NCBI GenBank assembly: GCA_964397045.1
Contig: CAYNHF010000021.1
Span: forward strand, 17,653 to 81,652
Direction of reading: 5' to 3'
Source: an uncultured Acidimicrobiaceae bacterium
Lineage (GTDB): Bacteria > Actinomycetota > Acidimicrobiia > Spongiisociales > UBA5794
DNA length: 64,000 nucleotides
Made by a program: the position numbers and the translations under genes. Of this stretch, positions 19,573 to 37,129 are shown piece by piece; within the stretch, counting starts at the first letter, position 1; every line of letters starts with the position of its first letter. The notes under the pieces are model-generated. The model was not told the origin of the DNA and searched no databases. It saw only the letters and a list, made by a program, of their open reading frames with translations.

Positions 19573-19698
19573 GGAGCGAGCCTACCGTCGAGGCCCTGTG
19601 CCCGGTCCAGGTCGGACACCGCGTCGAGGCGCCTACCATGCCGCACCCGGAGAGGGATCCCCCTGGAAAAGACCACCACAGACAAAGGAGATGAGTCG

Positions 19699-20712
19699 TT
19701 GATCATCGTGATGGCGCAGCAGGCCGACCCGGCCGACGTTGCCCACGTGGTGGAACGGCTCCATGGTATCGGGGCAGAGGCGCATGTGTCCGAGGGCACC
19801 CATCGAACGGTCATCGGTGCCATTGGGGAACGCGAGATGATCCAACAACTGCCGTGGGAGGCCTTCCCGGGTGTCGAGCGCGTGGTTCCGGTCCTCAAGC
19901 CGTTCAAGCTGGTTTCGCGCGATTTCCAGAGTGAGGACACGATCATCGACCTGGCAGGCGTGAAGGTCGGGGGGCGGTCGTTCGTGGCGATTGCCGGCCC
20001 TTGCGCAGTGGAATCACGCGATCAGTTGTTCGCTTCCGCCGAGGCGGTGGCCAAGGCAGGCGCAACCATCTTGCGCGGTGATGCGTTCAAGCCGAGGACG
20101 TCGCCTTATTCCTTCCAGGGTCTCGGAGAAGAGGGATTGATGCTGCTTGCGGAAGCTCGGGAGACCTTCGGGCTGCCGTTCATCGCCGAGGTGGTGGATC
20201 CCCGTGACGTTGAGTTGGTGGCCTCGTACGCGGACATCATCCGGGTCGGAACCCGCAACATGGCCAATTTCACCCTGCTTTCGGAGCTGGGGAAACAGTC
20301 CAAGCCGGTCATGCTCAAGCGGGGGTTCACCGCCACCATCGAGGAATGGCTCAACGCCGCAGAGTATGTGTACAAGGGCGGGAACCATGCCGTGATCCTG
20401 TGTGAACGCGGGATCCGCACCTTCGAGACCGCGACCCGCAACACGTTGGACATCTCGGCCGTGCCGGTCCTGAAGGGGCTTTCCCACTTGCCGGTGATCG
20501 TTGATCCCTCGCACTCCGGGGGGCGGCGCCAGCTGGTTGCGCCGCTCGCCAGGGTTGCCGTGGCAGCCGGGGCGGATGGCTTCATGGTGGATGTGCACAA
20601 CGCACCGGAGAATGCTCTTGTCGACGGTGCCCAGGCCATCCTGCCGGACGAATTCGCCGAACTCATGGACGACGTGCGCGCGCTCGCCGGCGTCATGGGT
20701 CGCGACGTCTAG
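19699..20712 (+). CDS. aroF: 3-deoxy-7-phosphoheptulonate synthase, type I-beta with N-terminal regulatory domain
   Basis: AGPCAVES, FKPRTSPY, GTRNM, LKRG, CERG, DPSH, VDGAQ; RBS AAAGGAG; TTG start. Confidence 0.93.
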   Translation: MIIVMAQQADPADVAHVVERLHGIGAEAHVSEGTHRTVIGAIGEREMIQQLPWEAFPGVERVVPVLKPFKLVSRDFQSEDTIIDLAGVKVGGRSFVAIAGPCAVESRDQLFASAEAVAKAGATILRGDAFKPRTSPYSFQGLGEEGLMLLAEARETFGLPFIAEVVDPRDVELVASYADIIRVGTRNMANFTLLSELGKQSKPVMLKRGFTATIEEWLNAAEYVYKGGNHAVILCERGIRTFETATRNTLDISAVPVLKGLSHLPVIVDPSHSGGRRQLVAPLARVAVAAGADGFMVDVHNAPENALVDGAQAILPDEFAELMDDVRALAGVMGRDV

Positions 20713-20725
20713 CCGTCCCGCCATC

Positions 20726-21751
20726 GTGGAGCTTCACGTCGGGATCCTCGGGACCGGGCTCATCGGCGCATCACTCGGTCAAGGGGTGCGCCAGGCAGGC
20801 GGGCAGGTCCTCGGCTGGGATCCTTCACCGGTGGCCGCTCGTCTTGCGCTCGATGCCGGCGGGCTGGATGCGATTGCGCCGGACGAGACATCCATCTGGG
20901 AAAGCAACCTGGATCTGGTGGTGCTCGCAGGGCCGCCGGGCGCGGTGCTGGCTGCCGTTCGCACGCTGGACGCCGGCACCTTGACGATGGACGTAGCCGG
21001 CGTGAAAGGACCGATCTGTGCCGCCGTGCCGCAAGGTAGACGCTTCATCGGAACCCATCCCATGGCGGGCAGGGAAACCTCCGGCCCCGCCGCCGCCTCT
21101 GCTGCGCTCTTTCGCGGTGCGGCGTGGGTGATTTGTCGCCAGGGTGCGGTCGCAGAAGACCTTCGCACCGTGGAGCAGCTCATCACCTCGCTTGGGGCTC
21201 GACCGGTAACCATGACTCCGGCAGAGCACGACGAGGCCGTGGCCATGGTGAGCCATCTTCCGCAGCTCCTCGCGGCCGTTTTGGTGACTGCGGCCTCCGA
21301 CCACACGTCGGCGCTGGACCTGGCCGCAGGGAGTTTCCGCGACCTCACCAGAGTTGCCGCCTCGGATCCGGGAGCCTGGGCGGAGGTGCTTCACGCCAAT
21401 GCGCCGGCCCTTCGTTCTGTGGTGGCCGACCTCGGGGTGCACCTTTCCCGGGTGGTCGACGCGCTCGACGACGAAGCCGACGAACTGCTCGACTACCTCA
21501 CGGCGGCCCAGACTTCTCGGCGCCAACTCGCGCCACCAGTAGTGGCGGTCCGGGTCGCACTGGCAGACGAGCCTGGGGAGATCGCGAGGGTCGGGCGTGC
21601 GCTGGAGAGCAGCGCGGTGGATCTGCGTGACCTTCAACTCCGCCACGCACCTCACGGCGGTGGCGGTCTCCTCACGTTGTCGGTGCGTCCGGGTGAGGCG
21701 GAACCACTGCGGAGCGCGCTCGAGTCCCAGGGTCTGCTGCTCGCCAACTAA
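20726..21751 (+). CDS. tyrA: prephenate dehydrogenase with C-terminal ACT-like domain
   Basis: GTGLIGASL, GTHPMAGRE, HDEAVAMVSHLPQL, SFRDLTRVAASDP. Confidence 0.88.
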   Translation: MELHVGILGTGLIGASLGQGVRQAGGQVLGWDPSPVAARLALDAGGLDAIAPDETSIWESNLDLVVLAGPPGAVLAAVRTLDAGTLTMDVAGVKGPICAAVPQGRRFIGTHPMAGRETSGPAAASAALFRGAAWVICRQGAVAEDLRTVEQLITSLGARPVTMTPAEHDEAVAMVSHLPQLLAAVLVTAASDHTSALDLAAGSFRDLTRVAASDPGAWAEVLHANAPALRSVVADLGVHLSRVVDALDDEADELLDYLTAAQTSRRQLAPPVVAVRVALADEPGEIARVGRALESSAVDLRDLQLRHAPHGGGGLLTLSVRPGEAEPLRSALESQGLLLAN

Positions 21752-35165: not shown

Positions 35166-35244
35166 CCGGCAATGCGCCTTCCGAGGTCCGGGGGCCGCTT
35201 CCGCCCGGTTGCCAAGGGGGGGGTCCGGGGGTACATTGGCCTCG

Positions 35245-35316
35245 ATGACGACGTGCCACCGCTTCTTTGCGTATCTCTTTACCGGGTCACTGGCCCGGGC
35301 AGAGACGACGCGCTGA
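35245..35316 (+). CDS. putative Phe/Tyr leader peptide MTTCHRFFAYLFTGSLARAETTR
   Basis: F-F-A-Y-L-F cluster (TTC TTT GCG TAT CTC TTT); TACATT 7 nt before its ATG; followed by a terminator-like hairpin. Confidence 0.7.
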   Translation: MTTCHRFFAYLFTGSLARAETTR

Positions 35317-35340
35317 ACCACGCCACAGCCGCCATCCGAA

Positions 35341-35376
35341 AGCCCGAAGCCAGCAGCGGCTTCGGGTTCTTGCATT
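35341..35376 (+). terminator. attenuator terminator
   Basis: AGCCCGAAGCC-agcagc-GGCTTCGGGTT then CTTGCATT, between the leader stop and the RBS of the 35405 gene. Confidence 0.7.
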
Positions 35377-35404
35377 CCCGGGCCGCCAGACCAGGAGCAC
35401 CATC

Positions 35405-36529
35405 ATGACCGAGAGCGGTCCCAGGGAGCCGACGCTCAAAAGCCATCGTCGGCCGGATATCGAAACCACCGTCGTTGCGGTTGGCAACGTCAGGTTTGGC
35501 GACGGGTCGTATCCGGTCCTTGCCGGGCCCGTTGCCGTCGAGAGCGAGGAGCAGATTCTGGTCACGGCTCGCTCCACCGTCGCATCCGGCGCCTCGGTCC
35601 TGCGCGCCGGCACGTACCGGGCGGAGACCTCTCCCTACCGATTCCCGGGCTTGGGAGAAGAAGGGCTGTGGCTGCTGGAACACGCCGGGCATGACACCGG
35701 GCTACCCACCTCGTCCGAAGTGCTGGAGCCGGGCCACGTTGATCAGGTGGCAGACCACGTTGATGTCATCGAGGTAGGGGCGGACAACATGGCGAACTTC
35801 GTTCTGTTGCGCGCAGCAGGGGCGACCGGCCTGCCGGTCATTCTGCATCGGTCTCCAGCCGCCACGATCGACGAGTGGCTCATGGCTGCCGAATACATCC
35901 TCGACGAGGGGAATGACCAGGTGGTGCTGTGCGAACGAGGGAGCAGGACCTTCGATCCGAGGACGTCAGACACCATCGACATCTCTGCGGTGCCGGTGGT
36001 GCAGCGCCTCAGCCATCTACCCGTCATCATCGATCCGGCGCCTGCTGAGGGCGGTCTCGACCTGTTGGCGCCGCTCGCCATTGCCGGCCGCAGCGTCGGC
36101 GCCGATGGCCTGATCGTCGCCGTCCACCCCGATCCCGATACCGCGAAGGCTGGGAATGGCAGCCAGATCACTCCGGCAGCATTCAGCAAGCTGATGGAGT
36201 CGCTGGGTATCCCGATGCTGCGGGACGAGATCGATCGCATCGACCGCGAACTCGTCAAGCTCGTCGCCCGCCGCCTTCACAGCTCCATCGAGATCGCTTT
36301 GATCAAAGCGGCGCGCGGCCTGTCCCTACGCACTCCGGCGCGCGAGGCGGAGTTGATCGCCGAGGCTCGAGGCGATGCCGAGCATCTCGGCGTCGATCCC
36401 GGCTATGTGGAGGATTTGATGCAGCTCGTCCTCGATCACAGTCGCAAAGCCCAACGCGCAGCACTCGTGGAAGTCGACGAGAGCCACGCGGCAGCTGAGG
36501 AACTCGCGGATGATGCCGGCAGTGACTAG
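35405..36529 (+). CDS. degenerate DAHP-synthase-like domain fused to a C-terminal AroQ chorismate mutase
   Basis: Collinear with aroF (TSPY.F.GLGEEGL, NMANF, EWL.AAEY, CERG, DISAVPV) but catalytic residues replaced; CM from ~36215: LRDEIDRID, ARR, IK, PARE, SRKAQ. Confidence 0.88.
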   Translation: MTESGPREPTLKSHRRPDIETTVVAVGNVRFGDGSYPVLAGPVAVESEEQILVTARSTVASGASVLRAGTYRAETSPYRFPGLGEEGLWLLEHAGHDTGLPTSSEVLEPGHVDQVADHVDVIEVGADNMANFVLLRAAGATGLPVILHRSPAATIDEWLMAAEYILDEGNDQVVLCERGSRTFDPRTSDTIDISAVPVVQRLSHLPVIIDPAPAEGGLDLLAPLAIAGRSVGADGLIVAVHPDPDTAKAGNGSQITPAAFSKLMESLGIPMLRDEIDRIDRELVKLVARRLHSSIEIALIKAARGLSLRTPAREAELIAEARGDAEHLGVDPGYVEDLMQLVLDHSRKAQRAALVEVDESHAAAEELADDAGSD

Positions 36530-36625: not shown

Positions 36626-37129
36626 ATGCAGTTGACCTCCGAGCCGACCGCGATGTCTCCCATTGAACTGGAGGCGAACGCGGCCCACCTGACTGTGGTC
36701 GACCGCGACGCGACCGACGACCTCGGCGCGGCCGCCGTGCTCGCCGAAGCTGAAGCAGAAGCTGACCGCATCCGAGCAGCCGCGAAACGCGACGCCCTCC
36801 AGATGTACAGCTCGGCGAGTACAGACGCTCGAGAACTCATCGAGAACGCACAGGCCGAGGCGGCGCAGATCATCCAGGCTGCTCGGGACGAAGCTGCTGC
36901 CGTCGCAGCGCCCGAGCCTGTAGCCGCGGTGCCGGCAGCGGAGACACGCCCGATGTCTCCCTACGACATTGTCGATGAAGCAGAGCCGGAGACGCCTTCA
37001 CCCTTCGACGAGCCTGAACGTGTCTCCAGGTATGCCAAGCACGCGGCTGAGATTCCCCACCTGGGCGAAGCAGCCGGCCGCGACGCGGTGGCTACTGCTA
37101 CGTCGTTGCGGGATCTGCTTCGCAGGTAG
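36626..37129 (+). CDS. short coiled-coil protein sharing a C-terminal motif with the 436-2436 protein
   Basis: AEAEAEADRIRAAA/AEAAQIIQAA repeats; SRYAKHAAEIPHLG...SLR. Confidence 0.7.
   Translation: MQLTSEPTAMSPIELEANAAHLTVVDRDATDDLGAAAVLAEAEAEADRIRAAAKRDALQMYSSASTDARELIENAQAEAAQIIQAARDEAAAVAAPEPVAAVPAAETRPMSPYDIVDEAEPETPSPFDEPERVSRYAKHAAEIPHLGEAAGRDAVATATSLRDLLRR

Follow-up and report, generated by a model that had tools for sequence, protein, structure and literature searches.

Why would a DAHP synthase barrel that has lost its catalytic residues stay attached to an intact chorismate mutase (CM), when an intact AroF is encoded 15 kb from the fusion? The question is raised by a 64,000-nucleotide stretch of DNA (the window; Table 1), for which a first-pass annotation had proposed a pseudoenzyme whose barrel either assembles with AroF or serves the CM as a module. 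In Pfam, residues 28-262 of the fusion match DAHP_synth_1 (PF00793, E = 2e-53) and residues 272-350 match CM_2 (PF01817, E = 8e-19), giving the order barrel, linker, AroQ. A phmmer search of the PDB matched the protein to 1vs1 (E = 4e-72), the A. pernix DAHP synthase, and Foldseek superposed the barrel on this structure with a TM score of 0.88 and an rmsd of 1.7 Å. The AF2 model is confident (pLDDT 86), with the active-site loops as its lowest-confidence parts; the CM region (270-371) is modeled as three long helices. As annotated, the frame is open from ATG to TAG and the ribosome-binding site is intact.

Table 1. Positions of the fusion gene, its leader elements and the separate aroF-tyrA pair in the window
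Feature	Position	Strand	Details
AroF, intact and presumably working DAHP synthase	19699..20712	+	Ferredoxin-like domain and type I-beta barrel; signature CKPRRKRRRSHDHD
TyrA	20726..21751	+	Prephenate/arogenate dehydrogenase family; directly 3' of aroF
Promoter-like site	35209..35237	+	TTGCCA-17 nt-TACATT
Leader peptide ORF	35245..35316	+	MTTCHRFFAYLFTGSLARAETTR-stop; 23 codons; Phe/Tyr-rich run FFAYLF
Hairpin 1:2	35282..35298	+	CCGGGT-cact-GGCCCGG; directly 3' of the Phe/Tyr codons
Candidate antiterminator	35295..35347	+	CCGGGC at 35295-35300, paired with the terminator 5' arm at 35342-35347
Intrinsic terminator hairpin	35342..35371	+	GCCCGAAGCC-agcagc-GGCTTCGGGT, then TTCTT
Shine-Dalgarno box	35393..35397	+	AGGAG, 7 nt 5' of the ATG; conserved in the alignment
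Fusion CDS, pseudo-DAHP-synthase/chorismate mutase	35405..36529	+	374 aa; ORF with ATG start and TAG stop
Type I-beta DAHP synthase TIM barrel	35486..36190	+	Residues 28-262; predicted to be catalytically dead
AroQ (CM_2) chorismate mutase domain	36218..36454	+	Residues 272-350

Active-site residues are numbered according to the AroF of the window, whose numbering presumably coincides with that of the Thermotoga maritima enzyme. At the AroF signature sites C102, K131-P-R133, R186, K207, S271-H272, D298 and D309, the aligned fusion has V43, R72-A-E74, D127, H148, A212-P213, A239 and G250. All four metal ligands (Cys102, His272, Glu/Asp298 and Asp309) are lost, with V43, P213, A239 and G250 in their places. 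KPRT(S) reads RAETS, Arg and Glu standing for Lys131 and Arg133, and the residues that bind the PEP phosphate are replaced at Arg186 (GARN to GADN) and Lys207 (LKRG to LHRS). Every substitution listed in the first-pass annotation was recovered by alignment to the window AroF; for the one given as VDG to GNG, the loss of the Asp stands but its position had to be corrected, since both MAFFT and HMMER pair Asp309 with G250 and not with N251. The scaffold motifs said to be kept are indeed retained: 55 barrel positions are at least 90% identical in both the live and the dead sets. All 246 members of the live comparison set carry C, H, E/D and D because they were chosen for these ligands. The alignment supports the prediction that the barrel is dead for DAHP synthesis and, because the catalytic residues are absent, the fusion was not filed as a bifunctional member of the Pni/Pgi type, the DAH7PS-CM enzymes of Prevotella and Porphyromonas.

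The barrel is degenerate in 120 of the 120 closest homologues and in 21 Acidimicrobiia species in GTDB; all four metal ligands together with K131, R133, R186 and K207 are replaced in each of these 120 and in loci L001-L014. Values of dN/dS were 0.035-0.14 for the barrel and 0.08-0.22 for the CM, the barrel being equal or lower in most pairs. The first-pass annotation had expected the losses to be shared and under purifying selection, and had named recent decay as the finding that would speak against its idea. The counts and ratios bear out the expectation and rule out recent decay, because the losses are ancient, shared and selected. Being common to the entire clade, the pattern lies far beyond chance, and the data support strong purifying selection across the class. 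They also bear on whether the barrel has any function at all, or whether the gene is instead degenerating, a young pseudogene or a product of sequencing error. A pseudogene domain would indeed be expected to lose all its catalytic residues, but more than 120 homologues and 21 species keep an open frame, dN/dS is 0.04-0.14, and both the scaffold motifs and the regulatory leader are conserved, so that we give this explanation a negligible chance. One sequence, P0158, has a dead barrel and no detectable CM; its C terminus resembles frameshifted low-complexity sequence, and it was for this reason left out of the evidence. P0176 is an independent dead fusion, with an uninformative gene context.

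Deeper Acidimicrobiia lineages display different, partial decay states of the barrel. The patterns at barrel sites differ among dead lineages (VRAEDH.., ILAGDH.., REAS.., CRQGG.. and CKVTQ..), and three or four of the metal-ligand positions survive in some deep lineages (L020 and L021 with C, H, E and E; L018 with C, K, H and E). The CM is the constant part of the fusion across these lineages, and the barrel sites vary. Could the barrel then still be an enzyme, either an unorthodox DAHP synthase or the catalyst of another reaction? Strong purifying selection, conservation of the substituted residues and the ligand positions kept in L018, L020 and L021 would fit such a role. However, in the subclade of the window V, P, A and G stand in place of the metal ligands, Asp and His have replaced two of the three cationic residues that bind the PEP phosphate, and the Lys and Arg of KPRT are Arg and Glu. 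Non-metallo KDO8PS enzymes alter the Cys alone and keep the other residues, unlike the fusion. The lineage-specific patterns also speak against one shared new chemistry, and we consider a catalytic barrel very improbable.

Within the subclade of the window the replacing residues are strongly conserved (R72 in 119, E74 in 114, D127 in 119 and H148 in 117 of 120 sequences), and could mark a new ligand site instead of a mere scaffold. Ten type-II divergent sites (A129T, K131R, P132A, R133E, R186D, K207H, I239S, E243D, S271A and D309G) lie at or adjoin former active-site residues and are 88-100% conserved in this subclade, where the sites of the former metal ligands C102 and E298 vary. This clustering is consistent with a remodeled pocket that serves as a new allosteric site, sensing for example Phe, Tyr, prephenate, DAHP or PEP and tuning the CM, or in which E74 and D127 mimic substrate. 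Indeed, a filled DAH7PS site activates the CM in PniDAH7PS (PMC8408635). In the substrate-mimic variant, the carboxylates of E74 and D127 would lock the barrel in an "occupied" form, the state that activates CM in the Prevotella enzyme. Against a new pocket, other dead lineages carry different residues at these sites (REAS, CRQGG, CKVTQ and ILAG), so that no common one exists clade-wide; moreover, the active-site loops are the least confident part of the model, and no particular ligand is indicated. We regard this possibility as unlikely.

The catalytic residues of the CM domain, by comparison, are intact. R273, R290, K301, R313, E314, S346 and Q350 of the fusion are the equivalents of E. coli CM R11 (R11'), R28, K39, R51, E52, S84 and Q88. 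All the Arg, Arg, Lys, Arg-Glu, Ser and Gln positions expected of an AroQ domain were thereby found. Across all 120 homologues these residues show little or no variation, and 20 of the 21 GTDB loci keep them, L018 with Thr for S84; L013 ends before most of the CM domain. Wherever a dead lineage includes the CM region, R11, R28, K39, R51, E52 and Q88 do not vary and the S84 site holds Ser or Thr. Judged by its sequence, the CM looks competent and is apparently working. Its score against the high-GC CM model of NCBIfam (TIGR01808) is 31.6 bits, under the cutoff of 52.15. A search for CM_2 domains turned up no second one in the 64 kb of the window or in a small sample of related Acidimicrobiia loci, some 450 kb in all. 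The fusion would be a CM of the Phe/Tyr branch, possibly the sole one.

The attenuator reported upstream of the gene proved to be real, with leader, terminator and antiterminator conserved across orthologous loci. All 21 orthologous GTDB loci encode a peptide of about 20 residues in which a Phe/Tyr-rich run is followed by FTG, as do L084 and L081, the latter being the locus of a live sister of the fusion. A TTGC...GGTAnnnT arrangement recurs at the equivalent place in orthologous loci. In the window the end of the -10 box is 7 nt from the leader ATG; hence, if this site is used, the leader ORF would stand on a leaderless or near-leaderless transcript. The RNAalifold consensus contains hairpin 1:2 (columns 38-43 paired with 49-54), the 3' half of which overlaps the antiterminator strand. 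The antiterminator can pair in 90.8% of cells, compared with 17-59% for slid controls, and its observed score was reached by none of 500 shuffles; its outer pair shows a CG/UA exchange (11 vs 7). This helix is short (5-6 bp), and the window copy forms only five of the six pairs. All 22 aligned sequences contain the terminator, a 10-bp GC-rich stem with a T-run on its 3' side. Compensatory changes were seen at two of its pairs (AU/GC, 11 vs 10, and CG/GC, 17 vs 3), and L084 has a variant form (CCCGAGACC..GGTCTCGGG). The motif occurs once per Acidimicrobiia locus and in none of 59 other loci. The T-tract of the window copy is weak (TTCTT); a generic terminator scan of the window missed the attenuator terminator because the T-run is interrupted, and comparative analysis was needed. 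At gathering thresholds, no Rfam family matched anywhere in the window.

We infer that the leader is a classical ribosome-mediated attenuator that ties the fusion gene to the supply of Phe and Tyr. When charged Phe- or Tyr-tRNA is scarce, the ribosome would stall at FFAYLF, the antiterminator strand would be freed and transcription would continue into the CM gene; with ample Phe and Tyr, the terminator would form instead. The arrangement resembles that of pheL/pheA, where a short leader with Phe codons and alternative terminator and antiterminator hairpins likewise precede a CM gene (PMC3082878), but the leader of the fusion is mixed Phe/Tyr, probably leaderless, found in Actinomycetota and without an Rfam match. 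A 2005 survey had no Phe/Tyr RNA elements in Actinobacteria (PMC1262725); the leader described here would place a conserved Phe/Tyr leader-peptide attenuator in Actinomycetota, where that survey had none for these pathways.

The window AroF is presumably, by its sequence, a working DAHP synthase. It carries an N-terminal ferredoxin-like domain (FXD; PF18152 in Pfam) and is of type I-beta with FXD, not a type II enzyme. The aroF-tyrA pair is also present in L085 and L086. On contig JAHEJX010000013.1 it lies about 17 kb from a dead fusion with the same synteny, a co-occurrence that was verified directly; four further cases are probable. An intact AroF beside the dead fusion, as the first-pass annotation described it, thus occurs in the window and at least once more, on that contig. 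Within 10 kb of the 21 orthologues no AroF, TyrA, PDT or second CM was found, with the exception of the live sister locus L081. The barrels of AroF and of the fusion come from separate I-beta lineages; they share about 46% identity, and none of 100 bootstraps placed them as sister groups. On the same ground, the idea that AroF arose by recent duplication of the fused barrel was rejected.

These observations bear on the first of the two original proposals, that the dead barrel and the active AroF form a hetero-oligomer which couples CM and prephenate sensing to pathway entry. The two genes co-occur 15-17 kb apart in conserved synteny, and type I-beta DAHP synthases oligomerize through their barrels. 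The equivalent of the P. furiosus interface residue I181 does not vary, either among the dead fusions or in the AroF set (PDB 4c1l is titled "I181D interface mutant"), so that barrel-barrel contacts are conceivable. Activation of an actinobacterial CM by a DAHP synthase complex offers a precedent (PMC7762937, PMC10520331): the AroQ-delta CM of M. tuberculosis and C. glutamicum is activated in this manner (Sasso et al. 2009, in PMC10520331; PMC7762937). Both there and in our proposal for the fusion an actinobacterial CM depends on contact with a DAHP synthase fold, but the mycobacterial and corynebacterial partner is a non-covalently bound, active type II enzyme, whereas the fusion has a covalently attached, dead type I-beta barrel; type II DAHP synthase and AroQ-delta CM are another pair. 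Against the hetero-oligomer stand also the separate lineages of the two barrels, the lack of a shared operon or co-transcription (AroF being absent within 10 kb of the 21 orthologues) and the allosteric ferredoxin-like domain that AroF has of its own. Furthermore, in C-terminal CM fusions of the Pgi/Pni kind the isolated barrel is monomeric and the CM holds the dimer (PMC12202928, PMC8408635). We therefore do not favor assembly with AroF and hold it to be distinctly unlikely. The second proposal, the barrel as a module for the CM, appears to fit the published domain-dissection data better.

A point of departure for the dead fusions is provided by P0121, encoded at L081, which is 54% identical to the fusion, has every catalytic residue and is the sister at the base of the clade (NJ bootstrap values of 84% and 90% support the whole clade and the dead subclade, respectively). 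Its gene is preceded by the same leader and terminator and followed by tyrA and a pheA; since this pheA is without a CM domain, no CM other than that of the fusion is encoded in the operon. The NJ tree separates the Acidimicrobiia clade, P0121 included, from P0149, a Bacteroidota-like representative. As P0149 is not the Pgi protein, the interface residues published for Pgi (E269, E270, E287 and R291) could not be mapped on it.

The explanation that we favor, and judge rather probable, is that the fusion is a CM of the Phe/Tyr branch, derived from a bifunctional ancestor, with the dead barrel entrenched as a support of the CM and expression controlled by the attenuator. The ancestor would have been a DAHP synthase with a C-terminal CM, of the Prevotella/Porphyromonas DAH7PS-CM architecture. 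In the lineage of the window, DAHP synthesis would have been taken over by the separate AroF with its own ferredoxin-like regulatory domain, and the fused barrel would have shed its metal site and its PEP- and E4P-binding residues. Contacts with the barrel in cis would still be needed by AroQ, whether for its affinity to chorismate, its stability or the control of its conformation, making the barrel an entrenched pseudoenzyme domain, a built-in activating or scaffolding subunit of the CM. We infer both the activity of the CM and the supporting role of the barrel, which would be kept because the CM depends on it in fusions of this type, as measured for Porphyromonas and Prevotella. The isolated PgiCM has a Km of 207 µM compared with 19 µM, and a 12-fold lower kcat/Km (PMC12202928); in the Pni enzyme, whose dimer is held by the CM only, the two activities are interdependent (PMC8408635).

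The Pni/Pgi enzymes are like the fusion in joining a type I-beta barrel through a short linker to a C-terminal AroQ, in about 360-374 residues, in being reported as often the sole CM of their genome (PMC8408635, PMC12202928), and in a CM whose performance depends on the attached barrel. They differ in being truly bifunctional, with prephenate feedback on DAHP synthase activity; the Acidimicrobiia fusion has neither metal ligands nor PEP/E4P binders, and has a separate AroF and a Phe/Tyr attenuator. The enzymes of Bacillus, Geobacillus and Listeria (PDB 5j6f, 3nvt) also join AroQ to a type I-beta barrel with one domain mainly regulatory, but as a mirror image: there the N-terminal CM is weak, regulatory and prephenate-sensing, and the barrel is the enzyme (PMC8408635). 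A parallel in decay is a degenerate aroA-I-beta "pseudogene" fused to AroQ-PheA in Shewanella oneidensis, mentioned in passing in 2005 (PMC1173090). It too combines a degenerate type I-beta DAHP synthase-like domain with a CM in one polypeptide; however, it is a P-protein with a C-terminal barrel, and domain order, partners, phylum and origin are different. Among sequences of this CM-PDT-ACT-barrel architecture the barrel is intact in P0126 and degenerate in P0174 and P0227.

A more specialized role is possible, though doubtful: the dead barrel may be a dedicated regulatory pseudoenzyme, in which the R72/E74/D127/H148 pocket sets the CM or which docks on the AroF tetramer and so couples pathway entry to the branch point. 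If so, the Acidimicrobiia decay series and the live sister would record a stepwise change from enzyme to regulator. For the entrenched support that we favor, the fusion would be a natural, class-wide case of a metabolic enzyme domain that has lost catalysis yet cannot be discarded. With a live sister and intermediate decay states at hand, interdomain dependence, entrenchment and the origin of a pseudoenzyme become directly testable.

Literature searches on dead or inactive DAHP synthase fused to CM, on DAHP synthase pseudoenzymes and on chorismate mutase in Acidimicrobiia returned nothing relevant except the Shewanella remark (PMC1173090). Apart from that remark, the original statement that no dead-barrel version is known holds for this fusion architecture, and the barrel appears from its sequence to be a natural pseudoenzyme domain not previously described. 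The C-terminal CM-linked DAH7PS family extends well beyond oral Bacteroidota; the Acidimicrobiia fusions contradict a recent claim that it is specific to periodontal pathogens (PMC12202928). The fusion passes the NCBIfam models TIGR01361 "DAHP synthase" (289 bits, cutoff 267.75) and NF009239 "bifunctional DAHPS/CM" (287.8, cutoff 279), and public records carry a DAHP synthase or bifunctional name for it. Naming the dead fusion a bifunctional enzyme would be a systematic annotation error, by which metabolic reconstructions of Acidimicrobiia count a false DAHP synthase.

Alignment of the fusion protein with AroF, the window's separate DAHP synthase (DAHPS), in which an N-terminal ferredoxin-like domain (FXD, PF18152) precedes an intact type Iβ barrel, reproduced every active-site substitution listed in the first-pass annotation; only one pairing differed, D309 being matched by G250 and not by N251. 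In AroF numbering, which we take to be that of the Thermotoga maritima enzyme, the metal ligands C102, H272 (in S271-H272), D298, and D309 are replaced by V43, P213 (in A212-P213), A239, and G250. The K131-P132-R133 stretch of the PEP/E4P-binding KPRT motif becomes R72-A73-E74, and the PEP phosphate-binding residues R186 (GARN) and K207 (LKRG) become D127 and H148. Residual or new catalysis by such a barrel is very unlikely. The chorismate mutase (CM) domain retains R273, R290, K301, R313, E314, S346, and Q350, equivalent, in that order, to R11, R28, K39, R51, E52, S84, and Q88 of what we take to be the E. coli CM reference sequence. An AlphaFold2 model of the fusion (pLDDT 86.3) contains a complete barrel and a three-helix CM; the barrel matches Aeropyrum pernix DAHPS with a TM score of 0.88 and rmsd of 1.7 Å, and confidence is lowest in the former active-site loops (71–80, 181–190, and 211–220).

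Features of the fusion locus and related loci (window coordinates unless another locus is named)
Feature	Location	Strand	Details
aroF	19699-20712	+	FXD and intact type Iβ barrel
tyrA	20726-21751		directly after aroF; PDH_N/PDH_C
Attenuator region	35209-35404; L081 2819-2950; L084 9830-9960; L001-L021		in L001-L021, upstream of fusion gene
Promoter-like site	35209-35237
Leader ORF	35245-35316		23 codons; peptide MTTCHRFFAYLFTGSLARAETTR
Small hairpin	35282-35298
Strong hairpin	35342-35371		GCCCGAAGCC-agcagc-GGCTTCGGGT, then TTCTT
AGGAG box	7 nt 5' of fusion ATG
Fusion CDS	35405-36529	+	open frame, ATG start, TAG stop, 374 aa
DAHP_synth_1	fusion residues 28-262		Pfam, E 2e-53
CM_2	fusion residues 272-350		Pfam, E 8e-19
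Ala- and Glu-rich ORF	36626-37129	+	167 aa, directly 3' of fusion gene
Live-sister operon	L081 2978-5722		leader, DAHPS-CM, tyrA, monofunctional pheA; short metagenome contig
Chloroflexota genes	L053 5624-7093; L075 8410-10062		apparent FXD, barrel, C-terminal CM

All of the best 120 database homologues of the fusion (69–98% identity; the named ones come from Acidimicrobiia MAGs) lack the catalytic residues. The substituted residues are themselves conserved (R72 in 119/120, E74 in 114/120, D127 in 119/120, H148 in 117/120, and G250 in 118/120); the ex-Cys position varies among V, I, A, T, and S, and the ex-Glu position among A, S, and L. A scan of GTDB species genomes yielded 21 loci from Acidimicrobiia that have the full architecture of barrel and CM (74–45% identity). 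In pairs of these loci, Nei-Gojobori dN/dS was 0.035–0.14 for the barrel and 0.08–0.22 for CM; constraint on the dead barrel is similar to that on the CM domain and tighter in most pairs. When the dead set was compared with 246 live type Iβ enzymes, 55 barrel positions were still identical at a level of at least 90%, and ten were conserved within each set yet different (A129T, K131R, P132A, R133E, R186D, K207H, I239S, E243D, S271A, and D309G), all within or adjoining ex-active-site motifs. The losses are thus shared by orthologues under purifying selection, as had been anticipated, all 120 homologues and 21 loci being degenerate. Class-wide sharing and low dN/dS rule out recent decay, and simple pseudogenisation is scarcely credible. 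These comparisons indicate that the loss is ancient and the barrel under selection.

An intact relative, P0121 (54% identity, barrel plus C-terminal CM, signature CKPRRKRRRSHEHD), emerged when 1.84 billion representatives were searched exhaustively; it keeps all catalytic residues. The pheA gene of its operon opens directly with the PDT domain, so that the fusion is the sole CM encoded there; this layout is probably ancestral. A neighbour-joining tree built from the barrels places P0121 at the base of the Acidimicrobiia fusion clade (bootstrap 84%), with the degenerate sequences grouped in a subclade of their own (90%). The window's AroF falls in a separate clade (100%) and is sister to the fusions in 0/100 bootstraps, which rules out the dead barrel as a decayed AroF copy. 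The tree points instead to the remnant of a formerly bifunctional enzyme. A P-x-L-K-x-x-R N-terminal motif (fusion residues 9–15; AroF 64–75) shows no variation among the dead fusions or within the FXD-AroF set; its place in AroF, immediately N-terminal of the barrel, is a hint that proteins of the fusion lineage formerly possessed an N-terminal FXD.

Deeper Acidimicrobiia lineages show differing, partial states of active-site decay, some with three to four metal-ligand positions, and together make up a natural decay series. The barrel site reads ILAG/GPDN/LHR in L009, L010, and L012, and R/EASS/A in L016, L017, and L019 (Ca. Spongiisocius group). In L015, H, E, and D are retained, whereas Cys, KPRT, and the GARN Arg are missing; L018 retains C, K, H, and E, with KVTR, GAQS, and GEQG; L020 and L021 retain C, H, and E, carry E in place of D, and have RQGN and HHGS. 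The KPRT motif is broken in every one, and the GARN Arg is also gone in all except L016/L017. Core catalytic residues of CM are present in every locus with a CM region (L013 is truncated), with Ser84 changed to Thr in L018.

The leader and hairpin arrangement upstream of the fusion gene recurs in all 21 GTDB loci, in the further locus L084, and in the live L081 (leader peptides include MKQNGLYFAYFFTGLSARAEGAR, MTARYRFSYFFTGPCARVDVIRR, MHMKPTYFAFFFTGSTG, and MRAAYVFTFFYAGSTARARGTR). The terminator stem carries compensatory changes (AU versus GC, 11 versus 10; CG versus GC, 17 versus 3), with a further variant in L084. In a 6-bp candidate antiterminator, the first hairpin's 3' half pairs with the 5' arm of the terminator: 90.8% of cells are paired, CG/UA exchange is 11 versus 7, and 0/500 shuffles match the observed score. 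Each Acidimicrobiia locus contains the motif a single time, and it is found in 0/59 other loci. It has no Rfam match, and Actinobacteria yielded no Phe/Tyr RNA elements in a survey published in 2005 (PMC1262725). The intact attenuator noted earlier is therefore borne out upstream of every orthologue by a Phe/Tyr-rich leader peptide, terminator, and antiterminator, features that identify it, at the sequence level, as a classical leader-peptide attenuator. Such predicted Phe/Tyr control indicates a product needed under shortage of Phe and Tyr, as would suit a chorismate mutase.

The window's fusion gene lies 15 kb 3' of aroF-tyrA; ctaA, ctaB, and a kinase gene of the APH family precede it, and an Ala-rich ORF, tag, and gpsA follow. 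The 167-aa ORF has no Pfam match and is not conserved at that place in L084. JAHEJX010000013.1 is organized likewise, the distance between FXD-aroF-tyrA and the dead fusion being ∼17 kb. Four further pairs of homologues (AroF 81–83% and fusion 70–74% identical to those of the window) lie on equal-sized contigs of 2,229,536, 1,854,072, 52,674, and 41,229 bp. Co-occurrence of intact aroF with the dead fusion thus holds for the window and JAHEJX010000013.1 and presumably for these four pairs. aroF was within 10 kb of the dead fusion in 0/21 loci, and tyrA, pheA, or another CM_2 gene was in its flanks (up to 10 kb) in 0/21. The region upstream of the aroF-tyrA operon (19573–19698) contains no Phe/Tyr leader or attenuator; control there is presumably allosteric, via the AroF ferredoxin-like domain. 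The first-pass annotation had proposed that the dead barrel co-assembles with AroF, and the position corresponding to Ile181 at the P. furiosus tetramer interface is indeed invariant. Such a hetero-oligomer is nevertheless doubtful, since operon structure, the lineage of the two barrels, and quaternary data on the Porphyromonas (Pgi) and Prevotella (Pni) C-terminal CM-linked DAH7PS enzymes are all contrary to it.

The Pgi barrel alone is monomeric, the dimer being held through the CM domains (PMC12202928, PMC8408635). Isolated PgiCM has a chorismate Km of 207 μM, versus 19 μM for the full-length enzyme, and its kcat/Km is reduced 12-fold (PMC12202928); CM of the Prevotella enzyme is activated by occupancy of the DAH7PS site (PMC8408635). 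This dependence of CM on the barrel in the same architecture would explain why the barrel is kept. We consider it fairly likely, as the most parsimonious account, that it serves as a structural or activating partner of the predicted CM: once the separate, self-regulated AroF supplied DAHP, the fusion's DAHPS catalysis would no longer be selected for, whereas its barrel would still be maintained by selection for supporting and activating CM. Less probable, though somewhat more so than assembly with AroF, is that the conserved, remodelled pocket binds a ligand or that the new carboxylates mimic bound substrate; this reading overlaps with the partner role that we favor.

The fusion is homologous to C-terminal CM-linked DAH7PSs yet, judged by its residues, is without their defining bifunctionality; Bacillus-type fusions are its mirror image, CM being the regulatory passenger there. 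Full-text literature searching found no paper on an Acidimicrobiia dead-barrel CM, in keeping with the first-pass annotation, which knew of no description of a dead-barrel version; the only related remark concerns a Shewanella “pseudogene of aroA-Iβ” fused to AroQ-PheA, a different architecture (PMC1173090). Automatic pipelines mis-name the fusion because it exceeds the NCBIfam cutoffs of both TIGR01361 (DAHP synthase) and NF009239 (bifunctional DAHPS/CM); public records carry “DAHP synthase” or “bifunctional DAHPS/CM”. The dead-barrel fusion overturns no principle but is of real interest for shikimate-pathway allostery and pseudoenzyme evolution.

Barrel death beside CM seems to have happened repeatedly. 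The Shewanella-type architecture occurs with intact and with degenerate barrels. Among proteins of ∼670–700 aa with an N-terminal CM and C-terminal Iβ barrel, P0126 and P0128–P0130 are intact, and P0174, P0199, P0227, P0233, and P0245 are degenerate. Pfam scans of P0126, P0174, and P0227 gave a full CM-PDT-ACT-barrel (P-protein plus barrel), the degenerate forms matching the Shewanella fusion that was remarked on in 2005 as “bizarre”. Apparently independent degeneracy was also seen in P0176 (barrel plus C-terminal CM, signature GGARETRQRGRECG), in the stand-alone barrel P0240, and in P0221 (FXD-barrel-PDT-ACT), where the metal ligands are gone and substrate-binding residues retained. Two Chloroflexota genes (L053 and L075) appear to encode a three-domain form, with a ferredoxin-like domain, an intact barrel, and a C-terminal CM in one polypeptide.
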